Source: Escherichia phage ST20. Taken from it: a stretch of DNA of 44,517 bases. Below are positions 1,028-38,288 of this stretch, piece by piece. The position numbers and the translations under genes were made by a program. The notes under the pieces were generated by a model. That model searched no databases and was not told the DNA's origin. It saw only the letters and a list, made by a program, of their open reading frames with translations. Numbering within the stretch: the first letter of the stretch is position 1; each line of letters starts with the position of its first letter. Where the stretch lies: the sequence record MF153391.1. The stretch is one strand, 5' to 3'.

Positions 1028-1202
1028 GTAGGTAGTAATCGTGCTCGCAAGGCTTTTCGTCCGCTTTCATGCGCTCAAGCAACAACTTAAACGCCTCCAG
1101 TTGAAATTCACCGTTAATTGACAGTTGTCCGCCTAACGTCTGTTTCTCTGACTCAAGCACCAGAATACGGCGCTCGAGTGATGCGATTGTGATTTTAGGC
1201 AT
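963..1202 (-). CDS. Hypothetical protein with Cys/His-rich C-terminus
   Basis: ORF track 963..1211; ATG at 1202 preceded by AAAGGTGA; C-terminal CEHDYYLHVVGGLHRATCIKCGKAYG. Confidence 0.4.
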   Translation of the reverse strand: MPKITIASLERRILVLESEKQTLGGQLSINGEFQLEAFKLLLERMKADEKPCEHDYYLHVVGGLHRATCIKCGKAYGVA

Positions 1203-1380
1203 TTGCGTCACCTTTGTTCAGGTTGAAGCGGTTAATCAGTTCACGGCGTGTCTCGTAGAGAGACTCTACCATTTGCTCGGCTACCGCTATTTTAGTATTC
1301 AGGACGTGCATCACGTGGCTTATGTCTACGCCGCCGTTAACGGCCTCCACCATCATCTTTTCATATTCGCGGTCAGTCAT
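1195..1380 (-). CDS. Hypothetical early protein
   Basis: ORF track; ATG at 1380 with GAGGTA upstream; 8-nt overlap with the next gene. Confidence 0.45.
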   Translation of the reverse strand: MTDREYEKMMVEAVNGGVDISHVMHVLNTKIAVAEQMVESLYETRRELINRFNLNKGDANA

Positions 1381-1612
1381 TTTTGTACCTCTGAGGCAGT
1401 TTATACGTATTGACCAGCCGCGCGTCTGCTTTCATCTCATCGATGAACTTCGGCAGTTCTCCGTGCTGGCAATTAAATAGCCACCACTGGTCACATATGC
1501 TTTGAGGGATTGCAAGTTCGTAGGTAATACCAAGCTCACGCATTACGGTTTGGGGATGTCGGGTTTCACCCGCATAATACGCACCAATGCTGTCATATCG
1601 TAAATGTTTCAT
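1373..1612 (-). CDS. Hypothetical early protein
   Basis: ORF track 1373..1627; ATG at 1612 lies inside the recurring junction GGAGAGAAGAAATGA (SD plus ATGA overlap). Confidence 0.45.
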   Translation of the reverse strand: MKHLRYDSIGAYYAGETRHPQTVMRELGITYELAIPQSICDQWWLFNCQHGELPKFIDEMKADARLVNTYKLPQRYKND

Positions 1613-1764
1613 TTCTTCTCTCCCCACATGCGATTGAGATACTTGTTCTTGTCAGGCCCGGGGAAACTGTTACGTTTCATCAGTTCCTCGCGTGTCGGGA
1701 ACGGGGTGTGGCTGACTTTACGACCTACTCGTAACGGCTGGCTTGCTGGGCCTTGTTCGCTCAT
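1609..1764 (-). CDS. Hypothetical 51-aa protein (below the ORF-track length cutoff)
   Basis: Hand translation MSEQGPASQPLRVGRKVSHTPFPTREELMKRNSFPGPDKNKYLNRMWGEKK; bounded at both ends by the same junction 15-mer. Confidence 0.4.
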   Translation of the reverse strand: MSEQGPASQPLRVGRKVSHTPFPTREELMKRNSFPGPDKNKYLNRMWGEKK

Positions 1765-2045
1765 TTCTTCTCTCCTATGTATCCAGTTACTGCGCTCCCG
1801 CTGTTAGGGATCCCGTTTATATCATCAACAACTATCGTATCTTTGCTTATACAGCGTCTGTAATAATCTTCGGAATTGCGCTCACCTAGATTAAGCACCC
1901 ACTCCATCCCTTCGCCGTCTGCATCCCACGGGCATTGATGTTTAGCCAACACCTGTTTCCAGTCCGCGCGGTCTATGCGAGAAAGTGTCTTATGCTTTCG
2001 CGACACAACCCTATAACCCGCGCTAATTAACTGTTGGTTTGTCAT
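1761..2045 (-). CDS. Hypothetical early protein
   Basis: ORF track; ATG at 2045 inside the junction 15-mer; C-terminus ...GEKK. Confidence 0.5.
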   Translation of the reverse strand: MTNQQLISAGYRVVSRKHKTLSRIDRADWKQVLAKHQCPWDADGEGMEWVLNLGERNSEDYYRRCISKDTIVVDDINGIPNSGSAVTGYIGEKK

Positions 2046-2251
2046 TTCTTCTCTCCTGCAAACTTAAATTTAGCCTCGAACTCCTTTCTACCAACACAAT
2101 ATTCCAAATAGGATTCATTGAATTTTATCAATGGGTGGTCCGCAATAAGCACGTGGTCCAACCCAACCGCGGTTACGATGAATCTGGCGTTGCCCTCTCC
2201 ATCCCACGAGTAATCACTCTTATAGATGCCACCGATAGTAACGTTGTTCAT
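2042..2251 (-). CDS. Hypothetical early protein
   Basis: ORF track; ATG at 2251 inside the junction 15-mer; C-terminus ...GEKK. Confidence 0.5.
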   Translation of the reverse strand: MNNVTIGGIYKSDYSWDGEGNARFIVTAVGLDHVLIADHPLIKFNESYLEYCVGRKEFEAKFKFAGEKK

Positions 2252-2397
2252 TTCTTCTCTCCTGCATAAGCCGCTTTCAGTGTCTGCATCGCGGCGAACC
2301 AGAACGCGTCCGCGGGGATGCTGTTGCTCAGGTTACTAACGGCGATGCGTGCCATCAGTTGTGCATCTTTGAATGCTTCGATGTCTGTGATTTTCAT
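2248..2397 (-). CDS. Hypothetical 49-aa protein, first gene of the leftward small-gene operon
   Basis: Hand translation MKITDIEAFKDAQLMARIAVSNLSNSIPADAFWFAAMQTLKAAYAGEKK; GGAGTAGAGAAG upstream; sits just downstream of the promoter at 2431-2459. Confidence 0.4.
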   Translation of the reverse strand: MKITDIEAFKDAQLMARIAVSNLSNSIPADAFWFAAMQTLKAAYAGEKK

Positions 2398-2430
2398 CTT
2401 CTCTACTCCGTTCTCGTTGTCTATGAAGTA

Positions 2431-2459
2431 AATATAATAGGGTCGATGATAATAGTCAA
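2431..2459 (-). promoter_or_regulatory. Sigma70-like promoter TTGACT-17-TATATT driving the leftward small-gene operon
   Basis: Reverse complement of 2431-2459 reads TTGACT, 17-nt spacer, TATATT. Confidence 0.5.
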
Positions 2460-2480
2460 CTAGTCATTACAGAAAATAGA

Positions 2481-2513
2481 TAAAAAAAATCCCGGCTGGG
2501 TCAGGGCCGGGAT
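2481..2513 (-). terminator. Intrinsic terminator downstream of the endolysin gene
   Basis: 8-bp stem ATCCCGGC/GCCGGGAT with 9-nt loop, followed on the minus strand by a run of seven U. Confidence 0.6.
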
Positions 2514-2577
2514 AAAACTGGAGAGCAGAAGGATGGAACAGGAGGTGATTTAAGTATCGTCGGATTAGTCTTAGGTG

Positions 2578-3075
2578 TCAACCTTTCACCGCGCGACCGA
2601 TAGCCTCAGCCTCCTGCCACGGTTTACCGTCGAACAGGGCGAGACGACCTGCTGTGCGGCGACGCAGGCCTAGTAACGGTTTGCCGTTCTGGTAGACAAA
2701 CTGGCCCATAATCCGACGACACTCCGCTACATTTCCCAGGCGCACCGCATCATCGAAGTCGGCCAGCCGGTTATCTTTCTCTATAACCCCTGTACCCACG
2801 TTGAAACAAAGGTCACAAATTGCGTCGAACTGCGCTTGATTGAATATCGAGTGTACTAATTCGTCGGCTTTCCTGACGGCCTTAGCCATATCACGATTCA
2901 GTAACAGGAGGCCTTCCCCCGGCGTGATGGTCTTACCTGGCGTTACGTCCGGACCGTAGTGACCGTACCCAATAGTCAGGTACTTCTCGTTTGGTGTAGC
3001 ACGATACGCAGTTCCACGGAACCCCTCAAACGCGGCGGTAAAATGCAATCCATTATCTGAAATGTTTCGAGACAC
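2578..3075 (-). CDS. Endolysin, glycoside hydrolase family 24 (T4-lysozyme-like)
   Basis: ORF track 2578..3126; GH24-like segments AAFEGFRGTAY and TIGYGH; GTG at 3075 preceded by GGAGGA, giving N-terminus (M)SRNISDNGLHF. Confidence 0.8.
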   Translation of the reverse strand: MSRNISDNGLHFTAAFEGFRGTAYRATPNEKYLTIGYGHYGPDVTPGKTITPGEGLLLLNRDMAKAVRKADELVHSIFNQAQFDAICDLCFNVGTGVIEKDNRLADFDDAVRLGNVAECRRIMGQFVYQNGKPLLGLRRRTAGRLALFDGKPWQEAEAIGRAVKG

Positions 3076-3325
3076 GCTTATGTCCTCCGTATGACAGCCA
3101 CGCCTGACGAATCTGACGCAGCGCAACTAATGTGATTAATGTCTCAGGCAGCGTCGGTGACATGCTGCCCTGCAACAGGTGGATACATCCGGCAGCGCAG
3201 ACGATAGCAGTCAGGATATAGAGCACCCTACCAAATAGCCCGTCGTCAACGCTGGGGTGATATACATTAAACAGCGATGTGCCTCCGATTGCCAGCATAC
3301 CGCCGAACCAGAATAGCTCATTCAT
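3053..3325 (-). CDS. Putative holin or antiholin-like small membrane protein
   Basis: Internal ATG of ORF 3053..3418; about 90 aa with two hydrophobic segments; overlaps the endolysin start and the upstream holin stop. Confidence 0.5.
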   Translation of the reverse strand: MNELFWFGGMLAIGGTSLFNVYHPSVDDGLFGRVLYILTAIVCAAGCIHLLQGSMSPTLPETLITLVALRQIRQAWLSYGGHKRVSKHFR

Positions 3326-3626
3326 CCGGGCCTCCTCGACGTGCGATGTATCCTCCGGCAACGATGCCAGAAAGGCGGGAATATATAGGCATCCAGAGAA
3401 TAGCGATGATGAATCCAAGGCCAGCTATCTCGCGCTCCCCGGTAATACCGAACCATTGAGCGGCAAGAGGCGCGCCAAATACGGCGCAAGTGAAGCCAGT
3501 TGCAATAAAGCAGAAGCCATCGATGGGGCCAGAAATAACGGACTTATGTTGTCGTAGTCCGATTACCCCACCAGCTAGTGCGGCAGCGAGAAGCCACCCC
3601 GTTACTGTTTCAGTAAATTTATCCAA
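3318..3626 (-). CDS. Putative holin (multi-pass membrane protein)
   Basis: ORF track; three hydrophobic segments; TTG start at 3626 with GGAGGA 6 nt upstream; immediately upstream of endolysin. Confidence 0.5.
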   Translation of the reverse strand: MDKFTETVTGWLLAAALAGGVIGLRQHKSVISGPIDGFCFIATGFTCAVFGAPLAAQWFGITGEREIAGLGFIIAILWMPIYSRLSGIVAGGYIARRGGPDE

Positions 3627-3632
3627 GATGAA

Positions 3633-3670
3633 TCCTCCAGGTGCGTATTAAGTATGCAGTAACTGGAGGA
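3633..3670 (-). promoter_or_regulatory. Inverted repeat that can sequester the holin Shine-Dalgarno in the mRNA
   Basis: TCCTCCAG at 3633-3640 and CTGGAGGA at 3663-3670; on the minus-strand transcript an upstream UCCUCCAG pairs with the SD CUGGAGGA. Confidence 0.4.
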
Positions 3671-3701
3671 TACCACGGGTAGGAATTATCTTAATAACGG
3701 T

Positions 3702-3995
3702 TTATTTATGACGCCAGATGTACTGTCGTCTCTGTGGTTTAGTCGGAATATCATCATACCCCAGCGATTTCCAGTAATTGAATAACCGATTAGCGATTGC
3801 TGCGCGTTCCTGTGTCTTGAACTCACCGAGATTCACGGCCTTCCCGTTCTGGAATCCACCGGCGCGTATGGCTTTGCGTCTGGCCTGAATCTCTGGGTAC
3901 AGTGCGTTATGGCGGCGCTTGTGTATTCTGGTGTTCGCTCTCGGTGACAGCGGCGCAAGGCCGCTTCGTTTCAGGATGTCAGTTGCAAGGCTCAT
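3702..3995 (-). CDS. Hypothetical basic protein, possibly AP2-like DNA binding
   Basis: ORF track 3702..4052, internal ATG at 3995; segment GKAVNLGEFKTQERAAIANRLF loosely resembles AP2-type domains. Confidence 0.35.
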   Translation of the reverse strand: MSLATDILKRSGLAPLSPRANTRIHKRRHNALYPEIQARRKAIRAGGFQNGKAVNLGEFKTQERAAIANRLFNYWKSLGYDDIPTKPQRRQYIWRHK

Positions 3996-4345
3996 GTCGT
4001 CTCCCCACAACTGCGGCACACAAAATAATCCTCGTCGGGGTCTAGCGCCCAATCATGCTCACCTATTTGGCAACCGGACGGCCCCGTAGCATCTTCGGCC
4101 CCTTCCACATGTGTAATTGACCCACAGTTCGCGCACTCGACGTAATCCGGGAACTGGTCTTTGTATTTCTGTAACTCGGCGTTTACTTCTGCCAGTCTTG
4201 ACACAAGCCCTTCTATTTCCATGTCCGTAGTTGTTATGTAGTCCTGGAAACTGTCGTCCAGTTCCTTGTAATCTTCGTACCCAACCCAGTCACCATCGTC
4301 GTGCGGCCCTATTAAACCGCCTTGTAATAAATATCTCTGTACCAT
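3992..4345 (-). CDS. Hypothetical acidic protein with C-terminal Cys cluster
   Basis: ORF track 3992..4450; ATG at 4345 preceded by AGGAGA; C-terminal CANCGS...CRSCG. Confidence 0.4.
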   Translation of the reverse strand: MVQRYLLQGGLIGPHDDGDWVGYEDYKELDDSFQDYITTTDMEIEGLVSRLAEVNAELQKYKDQFPDYVECANCGSITHVEGAEDATGPSGCQIGEHDWALDPDEDYFVCRSCGETT

Positions 4346-4346
4346 A

Positions 4347-4550
4347 TTATTTCTCCTGTTTACCAAGTCGCTTAGGTGAGCAGATAGCGCGTACCTCTGA
4401 ATCGTTGGGCTTGTCACCCTGAAACAGAAAGTGCGCGTTCTCTGCGGCACGTGCCGCTGACTGGCACGCCTCCATCGAATAGAACGTTTCTGTTGCCGCT
4501 AGTTGCATATGGCCCGTGGACAGTACCCAGATAAAGAGGATGCTGGTCAT
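4347..4550 (-). CDS. Hypothetical protein with hydrophobic N-terminus
   Basis: ORF track 4347..4607; ATG at 4550 in ATGA overlap with the upstream stop. Confidence 0.35.
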   Translation of the reverse strand: MTSILFIWVLSTGHMQLAATETFYSMEACQSAARAAENAHFLFQGDKPNDSEVRAICSPKRLGKQEK

Positions 4551-16863: not shown

Positions 16864-17913
16864 ATGAACTATTACAATGAGTGGGATAAAGGCGCAGCCG
16901 CGTGGCTGCGTGAATTAATAAAACAGGGGCATATACCTTTTGGAGTTGTAGATGAAAGAAGCATTACCGAAGTTAAGCCAGAAGACCTCGACGGGTTCAC
17001 CCAGTGTCATTTTTTCGCTGGTATCGGCGGCTGGCCTCTCGCGCTCAGACTTGCGGGAGTTTCGGAAGATACGCCTATCTGGACGGGAAGCCCGCCGTGC
17101 CAACCGTTTAGCGCGGCAGGAAAGCAACTCGGACAGTTCGACCCAAGACACCTCGCGCCCGTATTCCTTGACCTCATCAGCGAGTGCCGCCCTCCAGTCC
17201 TCTTTGGGGAACAGGTTGCGCCAGCAATTGCAAAATCGTGGATGTGCGATTTACAAACTCACCTGGAAGGAGAAGACTACGCCGTCGGGTTTGCCGTACT
17301 CCCAGCTTGTAGCGTCGGCGCACCGCACAAACGCGACCGACTTTTCTTCGGCGCGCATAGATTGGCCCACGCCAGCGGTATCACTGATAACAAACGACGT
17401 GAACATGCGCAGCACAGACGGCAGGACGAAACCGAACAAACTGGGGTGGGCCGCCGCGATGGCGGCATGGGCGACGCCGACCGCGAACGACTTCAAAGGG
17501 AGCGGAGAGACAGTGATTCGCAAGGACGGAAAGGACAGAACATTCGACAGGCTGGACTATTCAACGGAACAGGGTCTGAAACTGACAAATTGGCCCACCC
17601 CTCGCAGTGCCGACGGGGAGAAGAACGTGAGGACATTAGAAGGCTCGATGTCAGAGATTCAGAGGAAGGGTGGACCCCAGGACGTGGCGCAAGCGGCGGC
17701 TATAGCACAACCAATACGCATCACGGCTTCTGGTCAGATACTGACTGGCTCGGATGCCGGGATGGAAAATTCAGGCCAGTTGAACCCGGCACATTCCCGC
17801 TGGCTAATGGGGTACCCGCCCGAGTGGGACGATTGCGCGGTTACGGCAATGCCATCGTCCCGCAAGTAGCCGCTGAATTTATAAAGGCGTTCATGGGGGT
17901 TGTAAATGTCTAA
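16864..17913 (+). CDS. DNA (cytosine-5)-methyltransferase; the middle of the gene appears to be encoded in the overlapping frame 16952-17869
   Basis: ORF track frame 1: [33 protein letters not shown], and C-terminal [13 protein letters not shown]; the frame-1 middle is Arg/Asp/Glu-rich low complexity while frame 2 carries WPTP-type repeats and [10 protein letters not shown]. Confidence 0.6.
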
Positions 17914-29600: not shown

Positions 29601-30731
29601 ATGGCCCGGAAGAAAATAACCGACGAACAGTTGCAGGAAGAATTGAACGCCGGTATGAAGAATATCGACATCGCCCGTAAATACGGCATCTCAGACCGCG
29701 TTATTCGCATCCGTAAAGCGAAGCTGGCAAAGAAAGGCGTAGGTCACGGGCGAGACGTTAGCCATCTTGTACCAGACGGCTACAAGATTAAAGGCACGTC
29801 GTCACTGGTGGACGAGTTCGGCAACACTAAGTTGCAATGGGTTAAGACTGACACTGACGCCGAACGTCAGGTTGAGTTGATGAAAGCCGTAATCGAGGGC
29901 ATGAAGTCAGAGATTACCCCCGTTGCACCTGTTAAAGCGACCCGAGCCAAACGCGACGATAAACTGCTTAATCTTTACACTGTATCTGATTTCCATCTAG
30001 GTATGCTGGCATGGGCCGACGAGAGTGGCGACGACTGGGACATGAAGATTGCGGAAGACCTGTTCTCCAGCTGGTTCGATGCTGCGTTTCAGAAAGCGCC
30101 GGATGCAGGAACAGGAGTTATTAATCTGCTGGGCGACCTCGCTCACTTCGATAGTCTGGACGCGGTTACGCCGGCGAGCGGCCATATTCTTGACGCGGAC
30201 ACGCGCTATCAGAAACTGGTCCGCTACATGATTCGTATGGTACGTCGTGTCGTTGATATGGCTCTTGTTAAGCATAAAACTGTTCGCTTGCTTATCGTGC
30301 AAGGGAACCACGACGAATCGGGTATGATTTGGTTGTCTGAGATGTTCAGTACGCTGTACGACAATGAGCCTCGTGTGCTCGTCGATACGTCGCCGGATGT
30401 TTACAAGATGGTGCAACACGGCAAAACGACGCTGTTCTTCCATCATGGGCATAAAGCACGCTTCGACGCTATTGAGCCTGTTATGATTGCCAAGTTCCGC
30501 AAAGCGTTCGGCGAGAGTGTTTACAGCTACGCCCACGTAGGCCACCTGCACCATCAGAAGATTGTAGAAAGCCGTAACATGATTGTTGAGCAACACCGCA
30601 CCCTGGCGGCTAAAGACGCCTACGCCTCCCGCGGCGGATGGATGTCAGGCCGTAGTGCAAATGTAATTACTTATAGCGCCGAATATGGCGAGGTCGCACG
30701 TTTAACTATTTCACCGGAGATGCTTGGATGA
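29601..30731 (+). CDS. Calcineurin-like metallophosphoesterase with N-terminal helix-turn-helix domain
   Basis: ORF track 376 aa; metallophosphatase motifs DFHLG, GDLAHFD, GNHDE, GHLHH; N-terminal IARKYGISDRVIRIRKAKL. Confidence 0.6.
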   Translation: MARKKITDEQLQEELNAGMKNIDIARKYGISDRVIRIRKAKLAKKGVGHGRDVSHLVPDGYKIKGTSSLVDEFGNTKLQWVKTDTDAERQVELMKAVIEGMKSEITPVAPVKATRAKRDDKLLNLYTVSDFHLGMLAWADESGDDWDMKIAEDLFSSWFDAAFQKAPDAGTGVINLLGDLAHFDSLDAVTPASGHILDADTRYQKLVRYMIRMVRRVVDMALVKHKTVRLLIVQGNHDESGMIWLSEMFSTLYDNEPRVLVDTSPDVYKMVQHGKTTLFFHHGHKARFDAIEPVMIAKFRKAFGESVYSYAHVGHLHHQKIVESRNMIVEQHRTLAAKDAYASRGGWMSGRSANVITYSAEYGEVARLTISPEMLG

Positions 30732-36475: not shown

Positions 36476-36498
36476 AATTTACCTCTTAGTAAATGAAA

Positions 36499-36518
36499 AG
36501 AGGGACCGAAGTCCCTCT
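36499..36518 (-). terminator. Terminator immediately downstream of the major capsid gene
   Basis: Stem AGAGGGAC/GTCCCTCT with loop CGAA, followed on the minus strand by UUUCAUUU. Confidence 0.55.
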
Positions 36519-36534
36519 CGATTATATCTTAACC

Positions 36535-37584
36535 TTAAGCCCCGACACCAGTTACCAGGAAGGCAATCGGTACGTGCTTACGTTCAACCACACGGTTCCA
36601 GTTGGAGGCATTCGCCAGGTCCTGCCAGGAAGCGGAGCGTGCGACGGTCTCGGTGCCGTTACCGGTGATTACCGCGCTGGTGAAGCTGTAACCAAACGGA
36701 TGCAGCAACCAGGTCTTACGGGTCCACAGGGTTTCTACGCCGCCGCCGTTGCCGCGAGACGCTTCGCGCTCGTATTCCAGCGGGTTGGACGGAGAACCTT
36801 CACCGTAACCGATAGCGCCGTTGCCGAAGATGATGGAGATGAACTTGCGGCTCGGGCCAGTACCAACTACGGTCATGCTGTCGTCAACAATCACGCGGTA
36901 TCCCTGGTAGGTGGCGAACAGGGTGTCGTTGTCAGCGTCTTTGATGAAGTCAATAAGCTGCTGCTTACGGGCCTGCGCATAAACGAAGCTGTGCATCGCG
37001 ATAGCACCCAGCACTTCACCGCCGTTCCCCATCAGAGCATCACCCATAGTCTGGGTGGCGTCGATGAACGCGCCGGAGTCGAAGCCCAGAGTAGCGGACA
37101 CGTCGATTACCATGTCGTTCTGCTCGTGGTACGCGTCGGTAGCGGCTACGTTGTCGTTGTACAGACCGAGCGCGGTAGCAATCAGACGGCGTTGCGCCTG
37201 GCGCTGCCAGAAGTTATCCAGACGGGATGCTACGGATTGCAGCGGGTTCTGGCTGGTCAGTTCGACAGTCAGGTCAGCCTGGCCGAAACCTTCGTTCAGG
37301 TACGCAACTCGCGCCATCATCTCACCGGTTTGCACGTTACGCGGGGTTGCGATGTCCTGGTATACGTCGTTCGAGTAGTTAGGCTCGATAGAGGTATCAA
37401 TCGCTTTCCAGAAAGGAATATTAGCGACGTTGGACGGGCCGCGGGCAATCTCGGCAGCGTACGGAGTCGGGGTCAGAATACCGGACTGGAAGAACGCGGT
37501 TTTTTCTACCGGGTCCTCGGTCATATAAGACGCCAGGACCGGGATGTTGCCAGTTACGATATCGCCGATAGTGGTAATTGCCAT
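36535..37584 (-). CDS. Major capsid protein
   Basis: ORF track 349 aa; lies between the scaffold-like gene and a strong terminator. Confidence 0.7.
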   Translation of the reverse strand: MAITTIGDIVTGNIPVLASYMTEDPVEKTAFFQSGILTPTPYAAEIARGPSNVANIPFWKAIDTSIEPNYSNDVYQDIATPRNVQTGEMMARVAYLNEGFGQADLTVELTSQNPLQSVASRLDNFWQRQAQRRLIATALGLYNDNVAATDAYHEQNDMVIDVSATLGFDSGAFIDATQTMGDALMGNGGEVLGAIAMHSFVYAQARKQQLIDFIKDADNDTLFATYQGYRVIVDDSMTVVGTGPSRKFISIIFGNGAIGYGEGSPSNPLEYEREASRGNGGGVETLWTRKTWLLHPFGYSFTSAVITGNGTETVARSASWQDLANASNWNRVVERKHVPIAFLVTGVGA

Positions 37585-37586
37585 TA

Positions 37587-38288
37587 TTATTTCCTCAGGG
37601 CTTTAAGTTGCCGTTCAAATTCGGCAGGGTTCGATTTATACAGAGCTAAACGCTCCGCTTCACTCATGTCTTTAAACGCTGGTGCGGCCCCGCCGCCTTT
37701 GCTACCGGAAGCCCCGCCGCCGGAAGCTGCATTCGCTTTAATCAAATGCGAAAACGCTTTGTGTTCGCGCAGGTATTTGCGGAACTGTTCCGGGTCAGTC
37801 GTGATTACGTTGCCATCTGCGCCGACGAACTTAGTAACCACGTCATCGCCTTCGAACTCAGTCTTAACGAACGGCGCAAGAATGTCCACTGCTTCCGGGG
37901 TAATAAAGTCACCCGCGAAAGAGCCTAACACCGCCTTACGTTCGCTGCCGAGGATGCGCTCTGCCATTTTGGAGATGCGACCATCTTTCTCGGCTAACAC
38001 CGGGTCATACTGGCTACGAATCGTCTTTTCGAACTCGTCCATCTTACCAGCGGCTTTTAACGCCTCCTGGTGTGCGCGCTGCCGTTCTTCTTCGGCCTCT
38101 TTTGCTTTACGGGCGGCTTCTTTCTTCTCCGCCAGCAATGCTTCCTGATTAGCCTTAAGCCCGGCAACTTCTTTCTCAATCAGCGCCTGAACTTCTTCGG
38201 CAGTGAACATTTTCGGCGCGTCACCGCCGCCAGATTTATCTTCTGCCCCAGCTTCTTCCTGGAACGGATAACGTAAAAAACGATTCAT
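37587..38288 (-). CDS. Scaffolding protein
   Basis: ORF track 37587..38342, internal ATG at 38288; Ala/Glu/Lys-rich coiled coil; directly upstream of the capsid gene. Confidence 0.55.
   Translation of the reverse strand: MNRFLRYPFQEEAGAEDKSGGGDAPKMFTAEEVQALIEKEVAGLKANQEALLAEKKEAARKAKEAEEERQRAHQEALKAAGKMDEFEKTIRSQYDPVLAEKDGRISKMAERILGSERKAVLGSFAGDFITPEAVDILAPFVKTEFEGDDVVTKFVGADGNVITTDPEQFRKYLREHKAFSHLIKANAASGGGASGSKGGGAAPAFKDMSEAERLALYKSNPAEFERQLKALRK

Follow-up and report, generated by a model that had tools for sequence, protein, structure and literature searches.

Escherichia phage ST20 (sequence record MF153391.1) carries, in the 44,517-nucleotide stretch of DNA analyzed here (the window), a methyltransferase gene at 16864-17913 that is open in two reading frames of the same strand over ~900 nt. 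We consider it probable that the locus encodes a DNA cytosine-5 methyltransferase of two subunits, one nested in the other, with an α subunit encoded in frame 1 and a β subunit encoded in the +1 frame (frame 2), wholly within α. Ribosomes starting at ATG 16864 would read frame 1 from end to end to produce α, in which the S-adenosylmethionine (AdoMet)-binding and catalytic motifs I-VIII would be followed by a hydrophilic tether of ~120 aa and a conserved C-terminal segment that includes motif X. A second set of ribosomes would start at an internal Shine-Dalgarno (SD) sequence and ATG (GGAG at 16942, ATG at 16952) and read frame 2 to produce β, in which an unconstrained leader (~75 aa) precedes a short conserved element, three WPTP repeats that are each ~40 aa long, and motif IX. 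The sequence of the tether would be whatever frame 2 leaves, the only demand on it being an absence of stops, which keeps motif X joined to the catalytic domain, and the β leader would need only to stay open so that ribosomes from 16952 reach the repeats. The two chains would associate noncovalently and rebuild the usual two-domain enzyme, with β supplying the small-domain parts that α lacks, namely motif IX and probably the target-recognizing region, and the phage would presumably methylate its own DNA against host restriction.

Open frames, start signals, and motif content

The α open reading frame (ORF; 16864-17913, 349 aa) and the β ORF (16952-17869, 305 aa) are both uninterrupted, and the third reading frame over the locus contains many stops. 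The initial annotation had judged two such long overlapping frames unlikely to arise by luck, and randomization bore this out: in synonymous shuffles of frame 1 (n = 5000), the mean length of the longest open +1 run was 133 codons, and a run of ≥305 codons arose in 0.02% of cases, and none of 5000 permutations of the frame-1 codons gave a 305-codon +1 run. Chance does not account for the two open frames. A 217-aa phage ST20 protein in the database has exactly the sequence of the C-terminal part of the frame-2 ORF. In two scans, viral contigs yielded 91 loci (L003-L093) with protein identities of 41-96%, representing 66 distinct gene sequences, and in essentially all complete loci frame 2 opens at frame-1 codon 18-41 and closes a few codons before the frame-1 stop.

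Judged by sequence, frame 2 has its own conserved SD sequence and ATG. In the window, GGAG (16942-16945) is separated by 6 nt from ATG 16952, inside the α codons for F-G-V-V-D. The ATG of distant clades lies six codons further on, and there the α codons for R-S-I-A-D-V, written AGG AGY ATT GCA GAT GT, create an AGGAG followed after 8 nt by ATG. The rare AGG codon is used for that arginine in 23 of 42 cases, compared with 12% elsewhere in the same genes. β is probably translated from this start codon of its own, for which the nested enzyme M.EcoHK31I provides a precedent.

The family motifs quoted in the initial annotation were all recovered where it had placed them, split between the frames. 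Frame 1 contains FAGIGG (motif I, 17014-17031), PCQPFS (IV, 17095-17112), GEQV (VI, 17206-17217), and RDRLFF (VIII, 17332-17349), and a 13-residue motif X is encoded at 17845-17883. Frame 2 contains modules marked by WPTP at 17363, WATP at 17468, and WPTP at 17591, and a motif IX-like segment of 17 residues at 17777-17827. Pfam family PF00145 matched frame 1 with an E-value of 6.8e-17 (62.3 bits), aligning residues 72-186 with positions 64-182 of the 324-position profile, and frame 1 carries the motifs that identify a PF00145 catalytic domain (I, IV with PCQ, VI, and VIII). The full complement of a single-chain enzyme, in which motifs IX and X and a target-recognition region stand beside motifs I-VIII, was not found in frame 1, and the end of the Pfam match at residue 186 agrees with the earlier impression that the frame-1 middle is not methyltransferase-like. 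No Pfam family was assigned to the frame-2 protein in a Pfam search. Compared with M.HhaI, frame-1 residues 72-162 match residues 74-168 (motifs I-VIII), and the 17-residue frame-2 segment aligns with M.HhaI motif IX (KLHPRECARVMGYPDSY, residues 270-289), just ahead of motif X. The division of predicted motifs is thereby I-VIII and X on α and the variable repeats and IX on β.

Frame-2 homology alone is little proof of a second protein, because any frame laid over a conserved gene looks conserved. When the codons were worked through, several apparent motifs in the 5′ half of frame 2 proved to be shadows of frame-1 motifs: ASLSARQ mirrors PCQxFSxAG, LENRL mirrors GEQV, and ASARRTS mirrors GAPHxRxR. 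The middle of α, ~120 aa long, is hydrophilic and rich in Arg, Asp, Glu, and Gly, and a test for selection on the composition of this tether gave a slight and unconvincing bias against hydrophobic residues (mean z = -0.86).

Selection on the two frames and at their junctions

For 935 pairs of loci, the substitutions in high-identity BLAST segments were sorted by codon phase. These counts replaced a dN/dS estimate for the middle region that gave ~1 in both frames, its MAFFT alignment being saturated and of poor quality. In the N-terminal part, mismatches at frame-1 positions 1, 2, and 3 numbered 2847, 1272, and 8097, the signature of frame-1 coding. The corresponding counts in the middle were 3266, 1007, and 1240, with the peak on the frame-2 third position, and the middle substitutions were synonymous versus nonsynonymous in a ratio of 3163 to 2350 when read in frame 2 and 1052 to 4461 when read in frame 1. 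The same pattern was obtained with 23 disjoint pairs (N-terminal 152/68/449; middle 423/155/162). The variable region therefore evolves under frame-2, not frame-1, constraint. In 15-nt bins, selection switches sharply from frame 1 to frame 2 between 17347 and 17365, and the pure frame-1 signature resumes between 17830 and 17845, so that the selected frame is frame 1 to ~17361, frame 2 over ~17362-17829, and frame 1 again from 17845, with purifying selection in the appropriate frame in every segment.

Each frame remains open where it is not selected. The β leader has a frame-2 dN/dS of ~1.5, compared with ~0.10 for frame 1. The frame-2 reading of motifs I-VIII contains no stops in 66 sequences, where synonymous shuffles lead one to expect 1-3, and the frame-1 reading of the middle contains none in 63 sequences, where shuffles predict 2-12 and are stop-free in 0-8% of cases. 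Such stop-free but unselected stretches would be needed only if each frame were translated right through.

At both junctions the two proteins appear to share functional segments. Frame-1 synonymous divergence is 0.42-0.60 in the flanking parts, 0.34 at 17182-17316, and 0.135 at 17770-17829. In the stretch 17182-17316 a conserved element of frame 2 covers motifs VI-VIII, and the low rate of change at frame-1 third positions there suggests functional overlap at the first junction too. At the second junction, frame-1 PARVGRL (17815-17835) and frame-2 GYPPEW (17810-17827) are encoded on shared bases. An insertion parts this overlap in three loci (L019, L020, and L024), where the upstream copy retains only the frame-2 sense (RWLMGFP.HW) and the downstream copy only the frame-1 sense, in a segment of 21 residues. 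The separated copies each keep one sense, which argues that both readings matter, and since the two segments overlap, a single chain would be unable to hold both.

These observations bear on the initial annotation's claim that a coherent enzyme would need a +1 shift near 17340-17365 and a -1 shift near 17825-17840. The positions were well chosen, as they agree with the phase changes at ~17347-17365 and ~17830-17845, but the shifts themselves are not borne out. One polypeptide would be made by two programmed frameshifts, frame 1 being read to ~17355, frame 2 after the +1 shift, and frame 1 again after the -1 shift at ~17830, to give a conventional enzyme with motifs I-VIII, target-recognition domain (TRD), IX, and X. 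The selected frame does change at exactly those two points, and the spliced 1-2-1 translation envisaged by the initial annotation does lengthen the PF00145 match (residues 72-339, profile 64-318 of 324), although its score does not improve. P0125, from the database, has the two frames fused at junction 1 as if T17358 had been deleted; since the joins of other fused proteins from assemblies fall at arbitrary places, an indel variant or an assembly error is the probable origin of P0125. Among the loci compared, neither junction has a conserved slippery site: the first junction reads, for example, CTT TTC TTC GGC, CTC TTC TTC GTG, TTG TAC TGG GTG, or CTT TGG TTC GTG, and synonymous sites are equally free at the second. 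Nor would frameshifting explain why frame 2 lacks stops over 130 codons upstream and frame 1 over 120-260 codons of the middle, as they do in every locus. A conserved SD and ATG serves frame 2. PARVGRL and GYPPEW, moreover, overlap in sequence and are each conserved where they are separated (L019, L024, and L047). With M.EcoHK31I as a precedent for two chains (PMC2836561), we regard a doubly frameshifted single chain as very unlikely.

The proposed nested two-subunit gene and its segments are listed in Table 1.

Table 1. Features of the ST20 methyltransferase locus, with positions in the window
Feature	Position	Strand	Description
α ORF	16864-17913	+	349 aa; called DNA cytosine methyltransferase in relatives; phrog_363
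β ORF	16952-17869	+	+1 frame, 305 aa; phrog_1008; equivalent ORF annotated in K1ind2/K1ind3
Putative β internal ribosome-binding site	16942-16954	+	GGAG, 6-nt spacer, ATG
α catalytic part, frame-1 selected	16864-17361	+	Motifs I, IV, VI, VIII
β leader	16955-17181	+	Frame-2 reading without amino-acid constraint, only stop-free
First doubly constrained stretch	17182-17316	+	α motifs VI-VIII over conserved β element
β WPTP repeat region / α tether	17362-17721	+	Frame-2 selected; frame 1 unselected, stop-free
Second doubly constrained stretch	17722-17844	+	α GFWSDTDW...PARVGRL over predicted β motif IX
α motif X and C terminus	17845-17910	+	Pure frame-1 selection signature

Spread of the layout and possible exchange of WPTP modules

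The closest DNA matches of the window are to Kagunavirus and related Guernseyvirinae phages, and the two-frame layout extends to Salmonella phage epsilon15, Rhodobacter phage RcAqua (63% GC), and cyanophage Cr-LKS3. It occurs in 218 phage records and in genomes of 58% to 64% GC. Frame 2 also matches within the methyltransferase genes of N15 (gene 58) and BcepC6B, and its matches comprise 10,359 clusters at 50% identity (E ≤ 1e-3). An artefact or decay, whether two compensating sequencing indels or a pseudogene with frames open by luck, fits the superficial appearance of the locus, and a few assembled contigs do carry frame-fusing indels. The layout nevertheless recurs in ~66 distinct loci at 41-96% identity and in unrelated phages across this range of GC content, which excludes indel errors and decay; every segment is under purifying selection in the appropriate frame, and indels in the middle region are multiples of three (for example, 120 nt). 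This explanation is left with practically no probability. Among the possibilities that the initial annotation had listed, an overlapping gene is thus favored by the separate SD and ATG and the stop-free frames, recoding is disfavored by the lack of a conserved slippery site, and indel errors or decay are excluded by the ~66 loci and the purifying selection.

PHROGs lists the two frames in separate groups, phrog_363 for frame 1 and phrog_1008 for frame 2, and labels each "DNA methyltransferase". The records of phages K1ind2 and K1ind3 annotate both ORFs, as "putative C-specific methylase" with a nested "putative Mte8-like protein" in GenBank and as "DNA methyltransferase" for both in RefSeq. 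The "Mte8-like" label on the nested ORF of the K1 phages is a lead only. The record of Cr-LKS3, a Cylindrospermopsis phage, annotates β only (L096 1135-1872, g58), as "methyltransferase", and leaves the full-length α unannotated; most other records do the opposite and annotate frame 1 only. The literature searched, for the Mte8 label as well, contained no account of this phage family or of its two-frame layout.

Single-frame relatives were sought among the database hits, and only a few in-frame fusions with scattered joins were found. Frames 1 and 2 are joined in frame at scattered positions in P0125, P0093, P0112, P0122, P0135, P0230, and P0268, all from assembled reads, and these frame-joined proteins are probably indel variants or assembly errors. 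A possible parallel with in-frame LLPTP repeats of actinophage methylases was dropped, as tblastn gave no actinophage matches.

The WPTP modules of β vary by whole units. We counted 647 WPTP-type modules in 214 proteins, with 1-8 per protein and a median length of 40 aa; single-linkage clustering placed 595 of the 647 in one cluster, so that no module types could be defined. The window module at 17582-17701 (40 codons) constitutes a clean 120-nt indel relative to the K1ind-type phages, which lack it, and near-identical copies are present in very distant family members (P0136, P0137, P0150, and P0158). The modules are gained and lost as whole units, and the distribution of their sequences suggests that they are exchanged between family members. 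In L049-L051 the middle is enlarged to four to five WPTP modules, with both frames still open (450 and 422 aa).

It is conceivable, and we advance it tentatively as somewhat short of an even bet, that across the family target recognition resides on the nested β, in an array of 1-8 exchangeable WPTP modules, each ~40 aa long; what looks like the variable region of α would then be no more than a stop-free tether whose sequence follows from the other frame. In that case, thousands of proteins named "DNA cytosine methyltransferase" would be incomplete α subunits, and specificity, possibly multispecificity, would be set by cassette exchange in the frame that most annotations omit. That individual WPTP modules might define target sequences is speculation by analogy. 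Bacillus phage C5-methyltransferases such as SPR and phi3T are multispecific enzymes with tandem TRDs on a single chain in one frame, and the ST20 family resembles them in having a variable number of ~40-aa modules between motifs VIII and IX.

Several loci depart from the common arrangement. L043 (1447-2646) is the sole locus with a frame-2 stop inside the repeat region; its frame 1 is intact, and there are ~13 extra codons between motifs IX and X. In some genomes β has no stop and reads into the next gene (P0149 and P0147; the frame-2 ORF of L024 is 454 aa), and its in-frame fusion partners are a Dam N6-adenine methyltransferase (PF05869) or a DUF2800/PD-(D/E)XK protein. In L019 (1492-2937), as in L020, an HNH endonuclease ORF (PF01844, 22 bits) lies in frame 2 directly after the β stop, between motifs IX and X. 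Frame 1 is open across this insert of ~170 codons, and the flanks of the insert are partly duplicated; L024, L027, and L062 look like the same insertion site without the HNH ORF.

Around the ST20 gene, the neighbors are a DNA polymerase, a VRR-NUC-like gene, and a helicase. The α stop TAA (17911-17913) overlaps the helicase start ATG at 17906, and this overlap suggests translational coupling between the methyltransferase gene and that of the SNF2-type helicase. Other long ORF pairs in the window lie on opposite strands (36493-38148 (+) with 36535-37584 (-), and 29601-30731 (+) with 29997-30596 (-)); these may be ordinary shadow ORFs, although the antisense ORF at 36535-37584 (349 aa) equals the methyltransferase ORF in length.

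Known two-chain methyltransferases and implications for the phage family

The nested α/β design is already known, having been demonstrated for M.EcoHK31I in 1995-2009, and the ST20 locus does not establish a new mechanism. M.EcoHK31I, from E. coli HK31 with target YGGCCR, is a heterodimeric C5-methyltransferase whose β polypeptide is encoded wholly within another frame of α (PMC2836561; PMC3404938). Silent removal of its β start codons abolishes methylation, and supplying β from a second plasmid restores it (PMC2836561); both chains are required, and N-terminal truncation of β weakens their association (PMC2836561; PMC3404938). ST20 shares this arrangement, with β nested in α, motifs I-VIII and X on α, and a putative motif IX on β, and the likeness seen here is one of architecture. 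That both ST20 chains are translated, that they associate, and that activity requires both is proposed by analogy with this published case. In contrast to M.EcoHK31I, the ST20 β is nearly as long as α (305 versus 349 aa), starts near the 5′ end, and has an unconstrained leader. M.AquI is likewise a natural C5-methyltransferase of two polypeptides that must associate (PMC3404938), but the ST20 β is nested and motif X remains on α. M.HhaI, unlike the ST20 enzyme, has all ten motifs and the TRD on one chain in one frame. Genes decoded by programmed frameshifting, such as prfB, dnaX, and those for phage tail chaperones, have a conserved slippery site, and their unused frame is not kept open. The ST20 locus resembles them in that two frames of one locus contribute coding sequence, but it lacks a conserved slippery site and both its frames are stop-free far past the junctions.

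The M.EcoHK31I precedent also bears on whether α alone is the methyltransferase and frame 2 an independent overprinted gene, with, for example, a DNA-binding or antidefense role. Frame 2 carries a separate start signal, is under selection of its own, belongs to no Pfam family, and in some genomes continues in frame into downstream Dam or PD-(D/E)XK/DUF2800 proteins, all of which would suit such a gene. Against this, α lacks motif IX and a selected variable region, the motif IX-like segment occurs in frame 2 where it is expected, just before motif X, the two frames are never apart in the loci examined, and M.EcoHK31I α is inactive without β (PMC2836561). We therefore consider an independent role for frame 2 unlikely.

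Several results weigh against the two-subunit interpretation. The motif IX assignment is weak, the M.HhaI segment alone having scored -2.4 bits, and splicing the frames gave no gain in Pfam score (60.3 versus 62.3 bits). The selected segments (I-VIII, repeats with IX, and X) complement each other almost perfectly, as those of a single spliced chain would, and a leader of ~75 aa that is translated yet unconstrained is odd. In M.EcoHK31I the predicted TRD has been placed on α, whereas the variable region of the ST20 family is selected only in the β frame. AlphaFold2 models were uninformative, with a mean predicted local distance difference test score (pLDDT) of 45 for frame 2 (78 sequences) and 36 for frame 1 (56 sequences); even the undoubted catalytic domain was unfolded in the model, and in the β model only the element at 17182-17316 reached a pLDDT of 66-76, which is weak evidence for its structure.

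Both ORFs are already annotated in some relatives, and the residual novelty lies in how large the family is, in the likely location of target recognition on β, and in the omission of β by most annotations and by Pfam. The locus offers a case of dual coding with a functional rationale, since a single enzyme appears to be divided between the two frames. Thousands of homologs provide a large natural data set on how constraint is shared between overlapping frames, with clean boundaries between singly and doubly constrained sequence. Most phage and prophage records call frame 1 only, and Pfam has no model for frame 2; methylome predictions and expression constructs based on the α ORF alone would probably fail.

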